58,085 bases of DNA from a virus (Duplodnaviria > Caudoviricetes). The stretch covers positions 1-58,085 of IMG/VR virus record IMGVR_UViG_3300043398_000262. One strand, written 5' to 3'. Position numbers and translations under genes: made by a program. Numbering within the stretch: position 1 is the first letter of the stretch; the number at the start of each line of letters is the position of its first letter. Under the pieces are notes generated by a model that searched no databases, had not been told where the DNA came from, and saw nothing but the letters and a program-made list of their open reading frames with translations. Of this stretch, positions 4,308 through 58,085 are shown piece after piece.

Positions 4308-7131
4308 GGCGCTCTACCGTAGCCCACGAAAACTCCTTGTCCAACAGCTCTTGACGTTGCGCCGACAGACCTAGCCATAAATCGAAGGCTTCGCCGATTG
4401 GCGGGAAGGCAAGCTCAATCAACGGTTCTCCAGAGGCAATCAATACTTGAACATCATCTTTGGAGCGCCAAAACCACGCATACTCTAGTAGGGCAGACTG
4501 CGTCTCATTATCTTCCTGTGTGAACAGTTCGCTGATGTTATCCTGCGTCCAGGAACTTGGGGCAACATCCCCCTCAACCATCACTGAACAAGATTTGGTT
4601 CGCCTAGGCAGCCTAAGGCGCCCTTGGGCTTGCTCCAGCTCGTTTGCGGCACATTGCACCCATTCAATGTCAGCGGCTTCTCCCACCAGTCCCAGCTGAA
4701 ATAGCGTTGGCTTCAGCGCGAACCGTGGCGTGCCAAACATGTACGCAACCGAGCATTCAGTGGCGCTGCCTTGCTGCCACTGGTTCAGACCGCGCAACGC
4801 TCCGTAGTGTGCCACCTGGACTAATCCGCCACGCAGCCGTACCGGGTCGTTTCTTAGCGCTTCTGCGATAGCGCGGAACGTCACGAACAACACCCTGGGT
4901 GGGTCGTATTGCTGAGCTTCTTCTAGGGCTCGCTCCAACGCTGCATCGACCAACGGCCACGGTATCCCGATTGGCTCTCCTGGCTGCGCCTCGCGTCGCA
5001 CACGGCGGCCCGACGTCTCATCCCAGTAGCTGGTGGTCAGTGCCTTGGAGCCACGACCACCGCGCAGAATCATCACACGCTTGACAGGCGCGCCGTCGGT
5101 GACCGAACAGCTGCGTACAGCAAACCCAGGTAACGCAGCCATCATCGGCGTAGCCGACAGCAACACGCCTTTGCGGGCCACCAACTGCTCGTGACAGGCA
5201 TCAGGCATCATCGCCTGTAGTGGCGTGTGCCCGCGATGCTGTAGCCCTTCTACGGGCTCACCGTCGGCAATACGGGCACCCAGCCGCACAACAGCATCAG
5301 CAGCCCTCAGCAGCTCGGCTTCTGCTGCTGAAGGCCTGGAGTCCTCGCGGACTGACAAACGACGCCACTCACCAGCAAGTGCGATTGCGTTACCCAGCGG
5401 CGTTCCTTCGGGGCCCCAGACAATTTCTCCTGGTTCGGTACCGGTCGACCAGGCGCGTGCCAACTCGCGCACTACTTTGGCGATGGTGGCTGGCGCTGAC
5501 GGCAGCTCTGCCGTCACTAGTGCCTGCAGTTGGTTTGGCGTAACCTGAACTTGCTCATAGGTGCCTGGCATCTCGTCAACAATCAGCTCGATTCCCAAAC
5601 CCTTGTCTTTGCCATCAGCGTCCAGCCCGAACACCTGGTTGATGCCAGCGTGTGAGACAAAAATTACGTTGGCGCTAGCCAAGGAACGTTGGCGTTCTTT
5701 AGCAGCAGCGTAAGCTTCACATTCTTGCCTAAGCGGGCAGCGTGGGCAAATCTTACCCAACAGAGACACGCCGAACTCGAATACCTGCGATTTCAGTTCG
5801 TTGGCGCGGCCGCACACTGGCTCACTGCCGACTTGAATTAGCGGGCTATGCTGGTGCACAGAGCGTGCATAGACGTCTGGCGGCAGATACTGGCGTGTAT
5901 CGTGTGCGACTTCGTGCGTTTGCGTGCAGTAGGCAATCTTGTAGCCGGCTCTGGCGCGCTCTGTAAGAATTATGGCAGCGCTATGACTTTTTCCGACTCC
6001 AGCCGGGTAGTGTATGACAGTCGGCTCTCGGCTAAGAACTGCGTCTCGGATGTCGTCCACTAGCGACAATACGGCCTGGGAGACCGGTACCGACAGCTTG
6101 GGCGAAGCCTGGCGCTGAAGCTGCTCCTCTAGCCGAACCTGGAGCTCGCTGGGGGCACCAAATCGCCCTTGGTCGTCCAGACCCAACGCGGCCAAAATCT
6201 CGCCACGTCGGCAGCTGGCAAAGCATACGACATCGATACCGTTGCCGCTGGCTCGAACGCGAAAACTAGGGGATTTCTGAATACCGTCCGGAGCGCAAGC
6301 TGGACACGGCCCGCGGCGCCAGCCCTCAAAGGCTTCGGCACCCAGCGAGATGCCACGTTGATTGAACACCTTGGTGATGTCCCGTAGAGCTCCTACGGCT
6401 TCGGCCGTCGGCTGCTGATACGGGCGCTGACGTCGACTCGATACCTGGGCGGTAGTCGGGCGACGCAGGATTGCCTCGACATCCAGCGGCCTGCCTGGTC
6501 GAACGTCGAACACAGCCAAATGCGCGCGCTCTGGCGGTGTGCACGGTACGTACCAGCTCTGGGCTGGACGTGCGCTGGCCGGGTCAAATCCACGAGGCTT
6601 AGCCGCTCGCTCTATACCGCTGGCCGTCTCTACGAACCGGCCCAGTACTTCGGCGCGGTATTTTGGGTCATCAACCGGTACTTCGTGGCCGAACAGAGCG
6701 GGCACGAGCACTCGATATTCGTCTGGGGTAACCGGCTTGTCGAACGGTAAGCAGATGCGGTACGCGTCATAAGGGCCACGGGTCCCAGAGTCTGAGTGGG
6801 TTTTGTTTTCATCTCGGTGGCTCCAGCTCGAGTATACGATGAACGCGAGCCCCAAGCCGTCCATGTGGGCTACCGCTGCCTCCAAGTCGCCTATGTCAGC
6901 GCAATCCTTGTCTAGGACGGCCGCATGCAGACACTCCAAGCCAGCCAAGCCACGATTAGCCCCAATACGGTATTCGGCTGCGGCCCACAACTGAACGCTG
7001 TCCTTTGACGGCGCCACCAACTCAGGGAACACAGATTCGACGCCTTCTAGCGTCCAAGGGACGTCGAAAGAGCGGTCTACTTTGGACCCGTGTTTGCCCA
7101 ACGCTTGGAACAAAACGCCCTTGAAGCGCAA
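4300..7131 (-). CDS. AEP-type primase fused to SF2-like helicase
   Basis: N-terminal LDKD, YSSWSH, RICLP, FDPAS..PAQSWYVP; CPAC zinc finger; Walker A PAGVGKS, Walker B IVDE, LSATP, QAQGRLR. Confidence 0.8.
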   Translation of the reverse strand: MRFKGVLFQALGKHGSKVDRSFDVPWTLEGVESVFPELVAPSKDSVQLWAAAEYRIGANRGLAGLECLHAAVLDKDCADIGDLEAAVAHMDGLGLAFIVYSSWSHRDENKTHSDSGTRGPYDAYRICLPFDKPVTPDEYRVLVPALFGHEVPVDDPKYRAEVLGRFVETASGIERAAKPRGFDPASARPAQSWYVPCTPPERAHLAVFDVRPGRPLDVEAILRRPTTAQVSSRRQRPYQQPTAEAVGALRDITKVFNQRGISLGAEAFEGWRRGPCPACAPDGIQKSPSFRVRASGNGIDVVCFASCRRGEILAALGLDDQGRFGAPSELQVRLEEQLQRQASPKLSVPVSQAVLSLVDDIRDAVLSREPTVIHYPAGVGKSHSAAIILTERARAGYKIAYCTQTHEVAHDTRQYLPPDVYARSVHQHSPLIQVGSEPVCGRANELKSQVFEFGVSLLGKICPRCPLRQECEAYAAAKERQRSLASANVIFVSHAGINQVFGLDADGKDKGLGIELIVDEMPGTYEQVQVTPNQLQALVTAELPSAPATIAKVVRELARAWSTGTEPGEIVWGPEGTPLGNAIALAGEWRRLSVREDSRPSAAEAELLRAADAVVRLGARIADGEPVEGLQHRGHTPLQAMMPDACHEQLVARKGVLLSATPMMAALPGFAVRSCSVTDGAPVKRVMILRGGRGSKALTTSYWDETSGRRVRREAQPGEPIGIPWPLVDAALERALEEAQQYDPPRVLFVTFRAIAEALRNDPVRLRGGLVQVAHYGALRGLNQWQQGSATECSVAYMFGTPRFALKPTLFQLGLVGEAADIEWVQCAANELEQAQGRLRLPRRTKSCSVMVEGDVAPSSWTQDNISELFTQEDNETQSALLEYAWFWRSKDDVQVLIASGEPLIELAFPPIGEAFDLWLGLSAQRQELLDKEFSWATVERHG

Positions 7132-7804: not shown

Positions 7805-8352
7805 TTACTACCTCCCTAGATGGCAAAGCCAGTTCAGACTCATGCACGCTATAGTAGTATTGTTCGGGTATCGTCTGGACGAAATAGCGAAACGCCGAGC
7901 CGCCCATGTCGCAGATGATTGTTACCGGCTGATTGACCAGCCCGCAAGCTGTCATCAGTACCGTATCGCCAACCTTCATGGTTGCTCCTGGTTGGAGTGC
8001 TTGACAATGACGGCTCTAAGGAGCTCTTCGGAGTTTGCGTATGCCCGTGACATACCCGCGTCAATTGCTCGCCACTCGGGGCTATCGGTCGCCAAGCATG
8101 CCCTTCGGCTAGACGCCCAACGCCGGTCTAGCTCGTTTGCCAACTCTTCCAGGTCCGTTAGTAGCTTTTTCATACGTCCTCCTGAGATAACAAACGTTGA
8201 GCCGCTAGACAGCTGTCATACGACCCGGCAGCTACCTGGCGCCAGATTCGAATACCGACGCCATCGTCCTCAATTTGCGTCAGCACATAATACTGGTGCC
8301 ATTGACTGCTACAGGAGTATTGCTTGGGCCTGATTTCGTATCGAGTTGTCAT
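7791..8352 (-). CDS. Three small coupled hypothetical ORFs (7791-7979, 7976-8173, 8170-8352)
   Basis: Overlapping start/stop codons; promoter-like sequence just upstream of 8352. Confidence 0.5.
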
Positions 8353-8436
8353 CTAGGAGTATCGTACGGCCACAGCCGGCTAAATGTCCACCAGCATTTT
8401 GCGATATCTAGCTACTCCGCTATTGTGCCACCATTA

Positions 8437-10006: not shown

Positions 10007-10668
10007 CTAGCGAGCTGGGCGCGGGGAGGCGGGCTTATTGGCAGCTCGCATCAGCGCCAGTCCGCACCGGGCACACAGCGGATGGGTGTCGTATCGACTG
10101 ACCAGCACCAAGTCGACCAAGGACGTATGCGTCGACTTGCAGTGCGGGCACCGACTGCCGACCAAACCTCGGGCGTTCTCTAGCGTTTGTAGCTGGGTAG
10201 TCATCTGAACTCCGACGAGACGATTTGCTCGGTTAGCTCTTTCAAGGCCTCTAGTTCCGCAGCCGTGGCATTCCCCAACGAGGCCTTGCGAACCATCTCC
10301 ACATAAGTGGGGAGCCCGTCAGCGCAGGCTGGACAGTACGTTGAGTACAGCAGCGCCTTGTGTGTGCGCCAGTGATTACGACAGAAGCCCATTTGCCTGT
10401 CAGAATACGCCATTTGTTCTCTCCTTGTTGTGCCTAGAACTCAACCAGCCAACCGGCTCATCAGCCGAGCAACCGCGCGCTCAGACGCCTGGTTGACGGT
10501 CTCGGGGGCCAACGCAGCCATGTCCTGCTCCCAACTGCGCGCCAGCTTGCGGTCAGCCAGACGTTCACGCACTCGACGTGCGATGGCCAACCGATAATCG
10601 ACATGGTTGGCTGCGTAGCTGGGGCGTGCGGTCAGTCCGGTCTGGTTGGTCGTTGCTGCGTTGTCCAT
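10007..10668 (-). CDS. Small early-type ORFs (10007-10204 CPHC/CARC, 10201-10413 CRNH/CPAC, 10441-10668)
   Basis: Zn-ribbon-like motifs; GGAGAG RBS before 10413; TTGACG promoter-like sequence before 10668. Confidence 0.55.
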
Positions 10669-54201: not shown

Positions 54202-54480
54202 TGAACTTGCCTCCTGGCCACCTAGCTTAGTTTGGCGATATTCTTTGTCAGCAAAGACTGAATGGTCTCACCAATGTCGGCTGCGTCCATCGCAACCTGA
54301 CACAGATATGCCTGAATTGCATCCAGCCACTGGTCAGGCATCACCACTTTGCCGTGCCACGTAGACTTCTTGACCAGCTCGGCCAAACGCCCCGCCAGCA
54401 CCGGCAACGTGCCCTGGTGCATTGGCACCACCAGAGGCAGCTGGGCGTCAGTAATGCCGGCATTTATCACGAGGCGACTG
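54194..54480 (-). pseudogene. 3' remnant of a MazG-like pyrophosphohydrolase
   Basis: LAGRLAELVKKSTWHG...TIQSLLTKNIAKL, then ARWPGGKFNG in a shifted frame; no own start. Confidence 0.6.
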
Positions 54481-54930
54481 CGGCTCTGAGATGGTTCCGC
54501 GCATTGCAAACGCCGCAGATTCCACCTCGCGCTGCGCAGCACTCGCGTCAAACCGTGCCCTTGCTACGCGAAGGATCCAGGGGAACGTTCGGACGATCCT
54601 TAGTAGCGCGAGCCCTGCCGCGGAAGTCTCTCCAGCCTTCCAGCGAGCAATGGTACGCGGCGCCAAGCCAAGCGCGCGCTCCATGTACGCCATCGTAACT
54701 CGCTCCTTTTCGAGCGACTCGATGATGAGCCTCAAGGAAGCCTTATCGGCTTCGGCGATGGCTTGTCGGACAACCTCTGTTGCGCCGTCGTCCTGGTACC
54801 CTTCGTCGCAGTTCCGGCACTTCACCATGGGAACTTCATAATTGACGGCGGTTCCATAGGGAGGCTCATAGCGGCGGCGATCCAGCCTGCGCTCGACTTG
54901 AGTTGAACCGCATATGCGACACTTTTGCAT
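54448..54930 (-). CDS. MqsA/YgiT-type zinc-ribbon HTH antitoxin (orphan)
   Basis: CRICG...VPMVKCRNCDE zinc ribbon plus MAYMERALGLAPRTIARWKAG HTH; GAGG RBS. Confidence 0.82.
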   Translation of the reverse strand: MQKCRICGSTQVERRLDRRRYEPPYGTAVNYEVPMVKCRNCDEGYQDDGATEVVRQAIAEADKASLRLIIESLEKERVTMAYMERALGLAPRTIARWKAGETSAAGLALLRIVRTFPWILRVARARFDASAAQREVESAAFAMRGTISEPQSPRDKCRHY

Positions 54931-54938
54931 CTCTACCT

Positions 54939-55088
54939 CTACGCCCGTGGCCCATGCAAAGACTTGAGGGCGTGTTCGGCTTCAGCTGACTCGCCACACA
55001 GCCCCAGGGCACACTGCTCCAGCGGAATGAACTGACCGTCCTTGCGGCCCATAGCCAGCACCATTTCGTTGTACTCGAATCCGAACAT
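54939..55088 (-). pseudogene. 5' remnant of a MazG-like gene (49 aa, not in ORF track)
   Basis: GGAGG RBS, then MFGFEYNEMVLAMGRKDGQFIPLEQCALGLCGESAEAEHALKSLHGPRA; ALGL.GE..E is the MazG first helix. Confidence 0.65.
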
Positions 55089-55106
55089 TGCTTGCCTCCA
55101 AACACA

Positions 55107-55367
55107 CTAAAGAAGTCACCAAATGTACCGCAGCTGCCGCAGGGATTAGTCCCGATTGCCGTGGTTTGGTGGCTTCTTTAGGGCGACGACTCAGCAGCTG
55201 TTTCATGCGGCGAAACAGTAAAAACACCTGTCGCAGGCTCTCCCTGCGCACCATGGCTGCTGAGTCGTTGCAAAATAATAGAGTCAACCGCGCAAGTATT
55301 CGCCGGCCGGGGCATGCTGCAGCTGTTTCCCGACTACTGTAGGCAGCGTACTTGGACGCGGTTGGCT
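55107..55367 (+). ncRNA. Candidate structured RNA/ssDNA: three tandem stem-closed domains
   Basis: Closing stems 55107-55123/55165-55181, 55184-55201/55253-55270 and 55282-55298/55349-55367, each with internal hairpins; mismatches are G-U compatible on +. Confidence 0.5.
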
Positions 55368-55418
55368 AAGCTAAACCCGGCGGCTTGCTGAGAACAACCC
55401 AGCACGCAACCCGTGGAA

Positions 55419-56084
55419 CTAAGCCGAAACTCCGAAGCGGGCCTTGAACTCGGCCAGCTCAATGCACTCTGACGTAGCCTCGTTGAACACGAAGCTGGAG
55501 TCATCAGGATGCACCTGGAAACCTTGGGCCACTAGCTCGTTGGCCAGCGTCTTGACGACGGCAGCACGCGTTGGCAGCGCCGGCTTTGCCTTGACGGGCT
55601 CGGCCGTCGCTGGCTCGTTAGCCGAGTGCGGATAGAACTCGTAAAAGACAGTCGGATTGCCTTCCTTGTTCGTCCACGGAACCGCCTCAACCACCACACG
55701 ACGCCCCTTGAGAGGGCTGACAGGGCGGCTGATTGCACTCTGGTACCGCACGTTGTCGATTTGGTTGGCGTCACCAGCCTCTAGACCGCAGATAGCGGCC
55801 ACGGTGCGCTTGATTTTCCCAAGCTCACGCTGATAGGCGCTATCGCGCGGCATGCGTCCGCCACCCTTGGCGTCGTGCGGATAGACCTTGAAATCAGCGC
55901 GCAAGCCAGCGGCACTGGGGCCGGACTCAACGGTGAACTCGACGATGAACCCCTTGCCCTGGAGACCAGTGTGCTCCTTGACGTCCTGGACGATTACCAC
56001 GTGCGTGCCGGGCTTGAGCTTTTCCTTGGCCGTCTTGTTGCCAGGAATATACGCGCTACCCATATCAAAGCTGTCGTTACCCAT
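55419..56084 (-). CDS. Putative single-stranded DNA-binding protein
   Basis: Position between helicase and nucleotide genes; OB-like beta pattern (LKPGTHVVIV...FIVEFTV...LKGRRVVVEA); GGAG RBS before ATG 56084. Function inferred. Confidence 0.5.
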   Translation of the reverse strand: MGNDSFDMGSAYIPGNKTAKEKLKPGTHVVIVQDVKEHTGLQGKGFIVEFTVESGPSAAGLRADFKVYPHDAKGGGRMPRDSAYQRELGKIKRTVAAICGLEAGDANQIDNVRYQSAISRPVSPLKGRRVVVEAVPWTNKEGNPTVFYEFYPHSANEPATAEPVKAKPALPTRAAVVKTLANELVAQGFQVHPDDSSFVFNEATSECIELAEFKARFGVSA

Positions 56085-56192
56085 CTGCGGAGTGCTCCAT
56101 TTCAGTTCTAATTGGTGCCAAATGCGGTTAGCCAGAAGCACGATGCACTAGGGAAAATCTACGTGCAAAATGTTTCTTGCAGTAGCCTGTCA

Positions 56193-58085
56193 CTATTTGG
56201 TCCAGCGTGGTCCGCCCAGCTCGGCCAACGCCTCCAGCGACGGTAGTTCGCCTTCTGCGTAGACCAGCTTCTGCTCAGTCTGGGTGAATATTTGCTGGAA
56301 GACGGCTTTGCTGTCCTTGGCTTTGAGCAAGCTGGCGAGATGCTGACGGCACCCAATATACAGCCAGGACTGGACAGCAGCGGCTTCTTGACCAGGACGA
56401 TGTAGCCGCCCCAGCGCCTGTTCATCGGGTACCGTCATAAATAGCTGCTTGGACCAGAATTTCTGCAGATTGCGTCCACGTCGGTTCGATTGAACGGAGC
56501 ACACGGCTGGGCCGCCCTGATGTTTCATGATGAACTGCTTGGTTTTGGCGTCAGTTCCCTTGGCTCCGTAGTACGGGCACCCGACACGTTCGGCTATACG
56601 TTCACCCAACTCAACGCCTCGGACCCAAATCAACCCACCGTGTTCGCGTGCCCAGTCGCCTGCGGCTATGACTGCGTCGTCAGCCAACCAAACTACTTCG
56701 CTGGGGGGCTCCTCCAGCCCCGTCTCGGCCGTGTAGCGCTTCTGGGCAGCGTCCCATGCCGCCAGCTTTCCCTTGTCGTTATACAGGCGCCTACGGACAG
56801 CCCGCTCCATACGAGCAACCGAGTCGATGCCACGGCGGTTACTGGCAATCGCGTCGCGGCACCACTTCTGCCATTCGCGTCTGGCATCTAGGAACCACTT
56901 GGGCGGCTGTGGGTCGCTGAACCGCCCCCAGTAGCCATAGCCAGCCGTTTCCTGGTGCCGTCCGACGGCGAATTTATCCTCGAGAATGGTCCCGTCAGGC
57001 AACTGCTTCTTTTTGATGCAGCCGAAGAATTCGTCGATAGCGTCGTTCTGGGGCTCAGCTATCAACGACAACATTTCCAAGCCAATCTCTCGGCCCGAAT
57101 CGTCGACCAGCCGACCCTCCTGGGAGCTGATGACACCGGCCGTATTGTAGATGCGCCGAGAGACTGCGGTCCGCACAATATTCCGCTTGTCCTCGTATCC
57201 AGGCGTGGCGTCGTATTCAGCCCGCTCAGCAGCGTTCAAGAAATGCAGCAGAGCACCGACTTCGGTGTTGCTGGGTGCGACGTCCAAATAGGACGCCCAC
57301 GCCCGAAGCTCGGTGTAGCCGACGGCTGGACGTGGCAGCGGAGATTTGTCACCCAGCGCCATTTCCAGCAACACGGCCGGACCGTAAATCGAGTCCTTGA
57401 ACGGCGTACCCGTCAAGACGATGACTGGTGTGCCTGGGTATTTACGCAGATACGCTCGAATGCGCTTCAGTGCGACGGCTGCGTGTGCTCCGTGGGCCTC
57501 ATCCAGCAGCAGCATGTCGGGCCGAGCCCGCTCCAGAATCGACTGCCTAGAGATGCTGCCGTCGTCGCCCAGCTCTTCGCCACCAGTTGGCGCGCTCAGC
57601 ATTTCGTAGCTGAGGAACGGTAGCTGAGGTATCTGCCAGTGCTGGCGCAGCCGGGCAAACTCGCCGATGTCACCTTTTCTAGGATTGCCCATGACGTCTT
57701 CGCGCAACGAAGCAGGCGCGATATACAGCGGATTGCGAGCTCCAAGCACAGTCGGCAGCAAACCCGCCGTAAGCGTTTTGCCGGCGCCTACGCGCAAGAA
57801 TCCAGCAAGCCCGCGACACTGCCAAGCCTCGTGAAGAGCGGCTGCCTGCATGGGGCGCAGTCCACCTGGATAAGGCATCTGGGTGGTCGCTAGACGCTGG
57901 GTCAAGAACGCCCCCAAGTCCACTAGCTCTGGATTGCTGGGCGCTGGAGGAGGACGCTTGGCCAACGCCAAAATGCGCATCAGCTCTGGTCCCTCAGGGA
58001 CTACAGGGAAGCTGATGGTCTCAGCGTCGCCACTGCCGCCCATCTCCTCCAGCGTTGCCCCGATTGCGTCCAGCAGCTCCAGGGT
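56193..58085 (-). CDS. SF2 (SNF2/DEAD-like) helicase; true start at window position 27 across the circular join
   Basis: LRPMQ, VGAGKT, LLLDEAH, LTGTP, QALGRLHRPGQ; frame is open to 58085 and continues to the ATG at 27..25. Confidence 0.88.
   Translation of the reverse strand, partial: TLELLDAIGATLEEMGGSGDAETISFPVVPEGPELMRILALAKRPPPAPSNPELVDLGAFLTQRLATTQMPYPGGLRPMQAAALHEAWQCRGLAGFLRVGAGKTLTAGLLPTVLGARNPLYIAPASLREDVMGNPRKGDIGEFARLRQHWQIPQLPFLSYEMLSAPTGGEELGDDGSISRQSILERARPDMLLLDEAHGAHAAVALKRIRAYLRKYPGTPVIVLTGTPFKDSIYGPAVLLEMALGDKSPLPRPAVGYTELRAWASYLDVAPSNTEVGALLHFLNAAERAEYDATPGYEDKRNIVRTAVSRRIYNTAGVISSQEGRLVDDSGREIGLEMLSLIAEPQNDAIDEFFGCIKKKQLPDGTILEDKFAVGRHQETAGYGYWGRFSDPQPPKWFLDARREWQKWCRDAIASNRRGIDSVARMERAVRRRLYNDKGKLAAWDAAQKRYTAETGLEEPPSEVVWLADDAVIAAGDWAREHGGLIWVRGVELGERIAERVGCPYYGAKGTDAKTKQFIMKHQGGPAVCSVQSNRRGRNLQKFWSKQLFMTVPDEQALGRLHRPGQEAAAVQSWLYIGCRQHLASLLKAKDSKAVFQQIFTQTEQKLVYAEGELPSLEALAELGGPRWTK
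58062..58085. repeat. Right copy of 24-nt terminal direct repeat
   Basis: Matches positions 1-24 with one mismatch. Confidence 0.9.

Follow-up and report, generated by a model that had tools for sequence, protein, structure and literature searches.

A viral contig of 58 kb (58,085 nucleotides, analysed here in full and called the window) carries a 330-nt gap between two minus-strand genes, and within it positions 55107-55367 are arranged as three stem-closed domains. The question raised by this locus is what such an intergenic structure does and on which strand it does it. The structured gap begins 3' of the stop codon of a gene for a 221-aa protein, so that the operon runs through domain 3 first and domain 1 last (Table 1). 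A sequence-only reading had described the domains as a tandem set, selected as a single-stranded structure with wobbles specific to the plus strand, antisense to the operon, and had suggested a processed small-RNA array, an antitoxin or defence decoy RNA next to a captured antitoxin, or a priming signal beside an SSB-like gene. We observed that the domains themselves are real: a repeat finder recovered 17-nt arms at 55107-55123/55165-55181 and 16-nt arms at 55183-55198/55256-55271, both 94% complementary, and 11-nt arms at 55282-55292/55357-55367 that are 91% complementary. The folding advantage that this reading had expected was also found. Against dinucleotide shuffles, the 330-nt gap gave a z-score of -4.59 on the plus strand (0/100 shuffles as good) and of -3.01 on the minus strand (2/100 shuffles as good). 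Taken singly, domains 1 and 2 are clearly non-random; domain 3 is marginal and barely above shuffles.

The region had further been put forward as a candidate novel element, provided that no conserved overlapping protein explains it, and annotation agreed with this. Rfam 15 gave no match in the window at the gathering score and none over the domains at E <= 10 (54900-55600), and the ORFs that overlap the gap, of 84 aa on the plus strand and 101 aa on the minus strand, have no Pfam or PHROG match. The same two databases returned nothing for the 221-aa, 49-aa or 160-aa proteins. By eye, the 160-aa protein reads as a zinc-ribbon and helix-turn-helix (HTH) protein without a family match, and together with the 49-aa ORF (54448-55088, minus strand) it has a layout reminiscent of small anti-defence gene/regulator pairs. 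ARAGORN found no tRNA or tmRNA gene in the window, and a scan of both strands of 54400-56200 gave no promoter-like site. Relatives of the locus were sparse, and the phage is an orphan. The 221-aa protein had only three among 497 candidates, and a metagenome scan yielded three short contigs; neither flanking protein had relatives in viral contigs or phage records, the 160-aa protein had none in viral contigs, the helicase of the window gave one weak match in the relatives search, and blastn of the whole gap against GenBank phages gave none. DNA contigs that match the stretch are near-identical to it, apart from a single low-depth difference at 55255. Another sample gave a contig that equals the window exactly from 54971 rightwards and continues into unrelated sequence to the left; position 54971 looks like a mosaic breakpoint inside the region of the 49-aa ORF.

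Table 1. Features of the structured gap and its flanks, in window coordinates. Fold z is given against shuffles for each strand.
Feature	Position	Strand	Basis
Upstream gene, 221 aa, family-less	55419-56084	-	ORF list; start as in the 221-aa database form P0001
Domain 3, stem-closed hairpin	55282-55367	-	Inverted repeat I6; fold z -1.81 (+, 11/200 shuffles as good), -2.49 (-, 5/200); no R1 match
U-rich tract CUAUUAUUUU directly 3' of domain 3	55272-55281	-	Sequence reading and fold
Domain 2, copy of the three-way-junction motif	55186-55268	-	Model R1, 83.1 bits, E 1.8e-19; fold z -5.65 (+), -4.51 (-)
P1 of the motif	55256-55268 paired with 55186-55198	-	
CAUG paired with CAUG	55252-55255 with 55204-55207	-	
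GUG	55249-55251	-	
P2	55243-55248 paired with 55232-55237	-	
Loop GAGAG of P2	55238-55242	-	
AC	55230-55231	-	
P3 region	55208-55229	-	
AAACA bulge	55199-55203	-	
Domain 1, hairpin closed by 17 bp, 2 nt past the motif, then UGUGUUUGG	55107-55181	-	Inverted repeat I2; fold z -6.27 (+), -4.80 (-)
U-rich spacer, ribosome-binding site (GGAGG) and start codon (ATG) of the 49-aa ORF	55086-55106	-	Sequence reading
Downstream 49-aa ORF	54939-55088	-	ORF list
160-aa protein after the 49-aa ORF	54448-54930	-	By-eye reading

The identity of domain 2 emerged from a comparison with one short contig (L019). Downstream of the gene homologous to that of the 221-aa protein, this contig has another stem-closed hairpin, a U-tract and then a stretch that can be aligned with domain 2 on the minus strand. 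The inner hairpin of that stretch keeps the GAGAG loop of the window but differs by compensatory changes in its stem, CGCAGG/CCUGCG in the window and CCUGGG/CCCAGG in L019; the contig stops before the motif is complete. A 21-nt pattern made from the core of the window and L019 returned five viral stretches, all five of which contained a GAAACAG box that the pattern had not requested, together with a closing helix of unrelated sequence. With a looser pattern there were at least 120 matches in viral contigs, and among the matches listed at least 118 loci combined the pattern with a P2 helix of at least 4 bp, in at least 91 distinct cores. A genome scan gave 40 stretches. Both helices were present, by inspection, in five of these (L030, L032, L043, L044 and L056), which belong to three Streptomyces genomes, one Actinomycetota MAG and one Acidimicrobiales MAG; the remainder were mostly apparent coding-sequence matches, and three were ambiguous (L031, L065 and L068).

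We built a covariance model, R1, from 12 copies. At E <= 0.001 it gave 99 matches in 99 sources, two of the matches listed being second copies (L103 and L172). The 99 collected copies come mainly from viral contigs, span 32-70% GC and include a few actinobacterial genomes. Within the genus Streptomyces the motif was sporadic, occurring in 2 of 151 genomes sampled, for each of which only 31 candidates were scored. Homology between copies ends at the edges of the motif. No copy was found when four different copies were compared by blastn with 50,697 GenBank phage records, a kind of search that the short variable helices limit.

Several sources hold more than one copy or show other peculiarities. 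L172 has two tandem copies 2 nt apart (6612-6791, minus strand), L103 has two copies 1.7 kb apart on opposite strands (8342-8420, plus; 10169-10249, minus), and L092 and L146 are two loci of one viral contig. Upstream of the Streptomyces copy L077, positions 1350-1500 contain several near-repeats of a ~12-nt word (GGCGGATGCCAC-like) that resemble iterons or operator sites, and the genome from which it comes (G001) contains four motif copies, two of them on one contig 65 kb apart.

Read 5' to 3', the consensus runs through the 5' strand of P1, CAUG, GU, a bulged G, P2, AC, P3, a second CAUG, an unpaired AAACA and the 3' strand of P1. The 5' CAUG pairs with the 3' CAUG; P2 is a 6-bp helix (NNNNGG, a GAGAN loop, CCNNNN) closed by AC, and the helices meet in a three-way junction with zero unpaired junction bases. 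Some ten unpaired bases are conserved, namely the bulged G, the GAGA-N loop and the AAACA bulge, and the junction pairs are conserved too; this conservation is partly circular, as the search patterns fixed the boxes and left free the helices and the GAAACAG box of the first searches. The fifth loop base varies, being U in 60, G in 25, A in 9 and C in 4 of the 99 copies.

The minus strand of domain 2 is one copy of this widespread and structurally constrained class of three-way-junction RNA. Every consensus box is present at 55199-55255, the GAGAG loop is the variant found in 25 of the 99 copies, and P1 consists of 13 Watson-Crick pairs. As required of family members, P3 starts right after AC and ends right before the 3' CAUG; in the alignment row its GGUG is paired to CGCC, and the junction position holds an A-G mismatch. 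A window-specific hairpin, CUGUUUC/GAAACAG, competes with P3 in the minimum-free-energy fold. The motif lies ~150 nt past the stop codon of the 221-aa gene, with domain 3 in between, and has the orientation of the operon. R1 finds it as the single significant match in the window, the next best scoring 13.7 bits; domain 1 scores 9.4 bits on the plus strand and contains no R1 copy on the minus strand. With no second copy found by the model, domains 1 and 3 are of another kind than domain 2, and an array of three related units is not supported. The repeat finder detected only an 11-nt direct repeat between domains. The recurrence of GCAGCTGTTTC in domains 2 and 3, reported from the sequence earlier, was reproduced (55194 and 55319). 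On the minus strand, the 11-nt word at 55194-55204 and 55319-55329 equals the GAAACAGC box of the motif plus the first bases of the 3' strand of P1; this shared word could be the leftover of a duplication or could permit an alternative pairing.

To assess the structure we examined covariation across the 99 matches. In the R1 alignment, which is fitted to the model and so favours pairing, 89.8% of cells were paired, compared to 61.6% in shuffles, and the covariation score was 0.654, compared to 0.162, with 0/500 shuffles reaching it. Sliding the partners by 1-3 columns as a control lowered the score to 0.09-0.12. Changes on both sides were seen in 13/13 P1 pairs, of which 82.7% of cells were paired, and in the four variable P2 pairs. 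P3 is absent from the model, yet mutual information recovered the pairing of columns 45-48 with 80-83; this and the slid controls offset the favouring of pairs only partly. For the variable fifth loop base, the highest-ranking mutual-information pairs gave no tertiary covariation. Compensatory changes occur in each of the three helices over the 99 copies and lend strong support to a selected single-strand structure in domain 2. To this extent the sequence-only reading was right; for domain 1 no relatives were found in which covariation could be followed, and the plus-strand array that it had built on the same structure did not hold.

Which strand is functional was judged from the family. Across P1 and P2, read in motif orientation, G-U wobbles outnumber A-C mismatches by 102 to 52, and the P3 pairs 45/83 and 46/82 show G-U in 22 and 15 copies versus A-C in 7 and 4. 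On a crude ORF map, and among the matches listed, the upstream ORF is co-directional with the motif in 68/83 loci and the downstream ORF in 50/82. A co-directional upstream ORF ends within 80 nt of the motif in 69/99 copies, and in 40 of these 69 P1 lies at most 10 nt past the stop codon or overlaps it. Because of this wobble bias, the co-directional ORFs and the closeness of P1 to the stop, the minus strand, sense to the operon, is favoured as the functional strand of domain 2. The window's own mismatches point the other way: the three in the closing stems are G-T on the plus strand and A-C on the minus strand, as first noticed from the sequence and now confirmed. They amount to three pairs only, that of domain 2 lies outside the 13 conserved P1 pairs of the family, and the choice of the plus strand that was founded on them is not upheld by the family count.

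Next to the motif, the genes differ from phage to phage. Among the matches listed, 111 of 165 neighbour proteins were singletons and the most frequent neighbour family occurred in at most 8/97 loci. Helicase (6), replication initiation protein (5) and HNH endonuclease (5) were the most frequent PHROG annotations among 142 adjacent proteins, Erf-like annealing protein and SSB families matched 2 each, and other neighbours were terminase, endolysin, portal and dNMP kinase. Because the neighbours vary in this way, the link to an antitoxin-like or SSB-like gene that had been suggested for the window is not borne out. Four near-complete phage genomes of 94-187 kb contain exactly one copy each, as does the window, and these five are connected by only 7 pairwise protein links, none of which extends across three genomes; they have no replication protein in common. 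The class thus occurs usually once per genome, in phages that share no proteins, and typically a few nucleotides past the stop codon of a co-directional gene.

Among the matches listed, a tRNA gene lies within 20 nt of the motif in 4/118 loci, twice in the same and twice in the opposite orientation. The tRNA shares the orientation of the motif and follows it within 2-6 nt in L081 (motif 142-221, tRNA 227-299) and L119 (motif 616-536, tRNA 533-462); the tRNAs next to the motif in L118 and L141 lie on the opposite strand. The 187-kb motif-bearing phage genome (G156) has an ARAGORN tmRNA call at 143109-143475.

Three other roles were considered and set aside. A fixed terminator partner was not apparent, terminator-like sites lying downstream in 13/97 loci on the sense strand and in 11/97 on the antisense strand (among the matches listed); in some loci, e.g. 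L103, L149 and L181, a strong terminator is found within ~20 nt past the motif. A recoding signal (SECIS or readthrough) was rejected because the preceding stop codons are mixed (TGA 26, TAA 22, TAG 11) and their spacing is variable (2-39 nt). TANNNT hexamers occur upstream of P1 in several loci, with a good -35/-10 pair in L027; a promoter at the motif was dropped, as the hexamer abuts the upstream stop in L023 and L029 and the window gap has no promoter-like site.

The two flanking hairpins are lineage-specific. Domain 3 with its U-tract looks terminator-like for the upstream gene. The terminator scan missed domain 3 and CUAUUAUUUU because the inner loop exceeds the 8-nt loop limit of the scan, and the minus-strand fold of the domain is only modestly better than shuffles (Table 1). 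At the same place L019 has an unrelated hairpin followed by UCUUUUAG, in the same layout as the window. Domain 1, the other of these hairpins, lies upstream of the next ribosome-binding site. Its 17-mer had 17 matches in viral contigs, none extending beyond ~24 nt, and we rejected these as chance. Domain 1 might be another terminator or an insulator or, by analogy with Aca-bound leader hairpins, a site at which the small-ORF/HTH pair is regulated. In the accessible text of PMC13551039, Aca-bound hairpins are placed in the 5' UTRs of acr-aca operons, and domain 1 is likewise a phage hairpin in the leader of a small ORF and an apparent HTH regulator; unlike the situation described there, the 160-aa protein gave no match to an Aca, Pfam or PHROG family and domain 1 has no relatives. 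In a third relative, L021, the homologous gene is followed by two different stem-closed domains and not by the motif. The layout indicates that stem-closed domains after the 221-aa gene are a habit of the lineage and that the motif is an optional module. One of the domains of L021 (165-245, 3' of the C-terminal homologue of the 221-aa gene) forms a stem of ~25 bp, perfect apart from wobbles, in which the sense strand has three G-U pairs.

We then compared the motif with known RNAs. Rfam 15 gave no match at the motif in 11 plus 8 further loci at E <= 1, and a search of the accessible literature by sequence strings and by topic, within the text of articles, did not return a description of it. 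On the available evidence, the motif makes a good candidate for a new class of functional RNA, of which the window holds one well-formed member. To our knowledge, few small RNA folds are so conserved across unrelated phages, and most of these proved to be ribozymes or tRNA-like. The hammerhead, twister-sister, pistol and hatchet ribozymes are scattered through phages and have a similar size and junction architecture. Like such small self-cleaving ribozymes, the motif is ~55-90 nt long and multi-stemmed with ~20 conserved bases, and it occurs in unrelated phages without a fixed gene partner, mostly in sense intergenic positions and sometimes in tandem. In contrast to them, it matches no Rfam ribozyme model at E <= 1, and its conserved bases are mostly paired or confined to one loop and one bulge; by inspection, its junction strands lack what we take to be the hammerhead core.

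With phage tRNAs and tRNA-like RNAs the motif has in common that it is a small helix-closed unit, that a genome carries one or a few copies and that it can lie directly beside tRNA genes; the motif differs in that it is called neither by ARAGORN nor by the Rfam tRNA model, has three helices instead of four and carries a 5-nt loop. Type III toxin-antitoxin RNAs are a poorer comparison, as the window has only the 11-nt shared repeat and one R1 copy, and no toxin family was found among the window neighbours scanned with Pfam and PHROG. As far as the accessible text of PMC9378689 describes it, the put RNA of phage HK022 is a cis-encoded structured RNA of ~70 nt that acts on a universal host machine without a phage protein, and consists of two stem-loops in a V shape downstream of early promoters. 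Judged from that text, the architecture is different, since the motif is a helix-closed three-way junction that follows the stop codons of varied genes. In functional terms, put sets a precedent for a phage RNA that works on a host machine without a phage protein.

How would such an RNA act in this operon? We see about an even chance that the gap carries a sense-strand (minus) RNA module on the operon transcript, and not an antisense noncoding RNA array. No phage protein travels with the motif and the same core is kept at 32-70% GC, which argues that the RNA acts alone or with a universal host component; our best guess is an RNA device that is complete in itself, be it a ribozyme or an RNA that binds a host factor. 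Processing of the RNA at the motif site, by self-cleavage or by cleavage directed by a host RNase, would be the likeliest single mechanism, and we propose it tentatively. It is placed first because small self-cleaving ribozymes are similar in size, junction architecture and distribution among phages. Processing could separate the message of the 221-aa protein from the downstream small-ORF and HTH genes, or could release a small stable RNA. Domain 3 and its U-tract would then serve as a leaky intrinsic terminator upstream of the motif, and domain 1, immediately ahead of the next ribosome-binding site, would be a further hairpin with the role of a terminator, an insulator or a regulator site. 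The boldest form of this account, which we regard as rather speculative, is that the motif may be a new catalytic (e.g. self-cleaving) or ligand- or host-machine-binding RNA class that needs no phage protein and has passed horizontally between unrelated tailed phages whose hosts belong to many phyla, the window copy lying between two insulating hairpins of an early/replication operon.

An unlikely but serious alternative to processing within the message is a trans-acting small RNA or decoy, a small stable RNA comparable to a phage tRNA that is cut from the transcript and binds a universal component of the host, for instance RNA polymerase, the ribosome, a defence protein or an RNase. This would fit the single copy in each of the four near-complete genomes, the lack of a conserved phage protein, the long closing helix, the tandem copies of L172 and the tRNA genes within 20 nt of the motif, two of them (L081 and L119) in its orientation. 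A small RNA with its own promoter and terminator is less readily accommodated: the -10-like hexamers of L023 and L029 overlap stop codons, and P1 is not followed by a U-tract, with a mean of 2.4 T in the next 10 nt.

Two further explanations seem improbable to us. The first is that the motif is an element of single-stranded DNA, folding during replication or recombination as a priming or origin signal. One copy per genome and the helicase, replication initiation, Erf-like annealing and SSB proteins among the neighbours would suit it (the HNH endonucleases counted with these have no replication function), as would the position of the window motif beside a helicase gene and a possible ssDNA-binding gene; G-T wobbles are tolerated in DNA too. 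Against it, other neighbours are portal, terminase, endolysin and dNMP kinase genes, the five compared genomes have no common replication protein, and the position after stop codons together with the co-orientation of genes suits a transcript better. The second, to which we give no greater credence, is plain mRNA punctuation, in which terminator or stabiliser hairpins have no specific activity and the conserved bases reflect shared ancestry. The gene followed by a hairpin and U-tract in the window and in L019, and the strong terminators shortly past the motif in L103, L149 and L181, are what it would predict; yet punctuation elements occur many times per genome and the motif once, and identical boxes in phages without common proteins at 32-70% GC argue for selection on the bases themselves. 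Least probable of all is a plus-strand antisense array, processed to small RNAs or to an antitoxin or decoy RNA, since the slightly better plus-strand fold of the gap and of domains 1 and 2 and the three G-U pairs in its closing stems are outweighed by the family wobble bias and gene orientation, the absence of homology between domains and of a promoter-like site on either strand, and an antitoxin-like neighbour that is not conserved beside the motif.

For the motif there are now an exact consensus and a covariance model, its strand is defined and some hundred natural variants are at hand, so that the reading as a sense-strand RNA device can be tested in vitro at once. If the class has already been described elsewhere, the window adds one more member to it. 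If the motif is catalytic or binds a universal host machine, it would represent a new class of RNA and a new route by which phages shape their transcripts.
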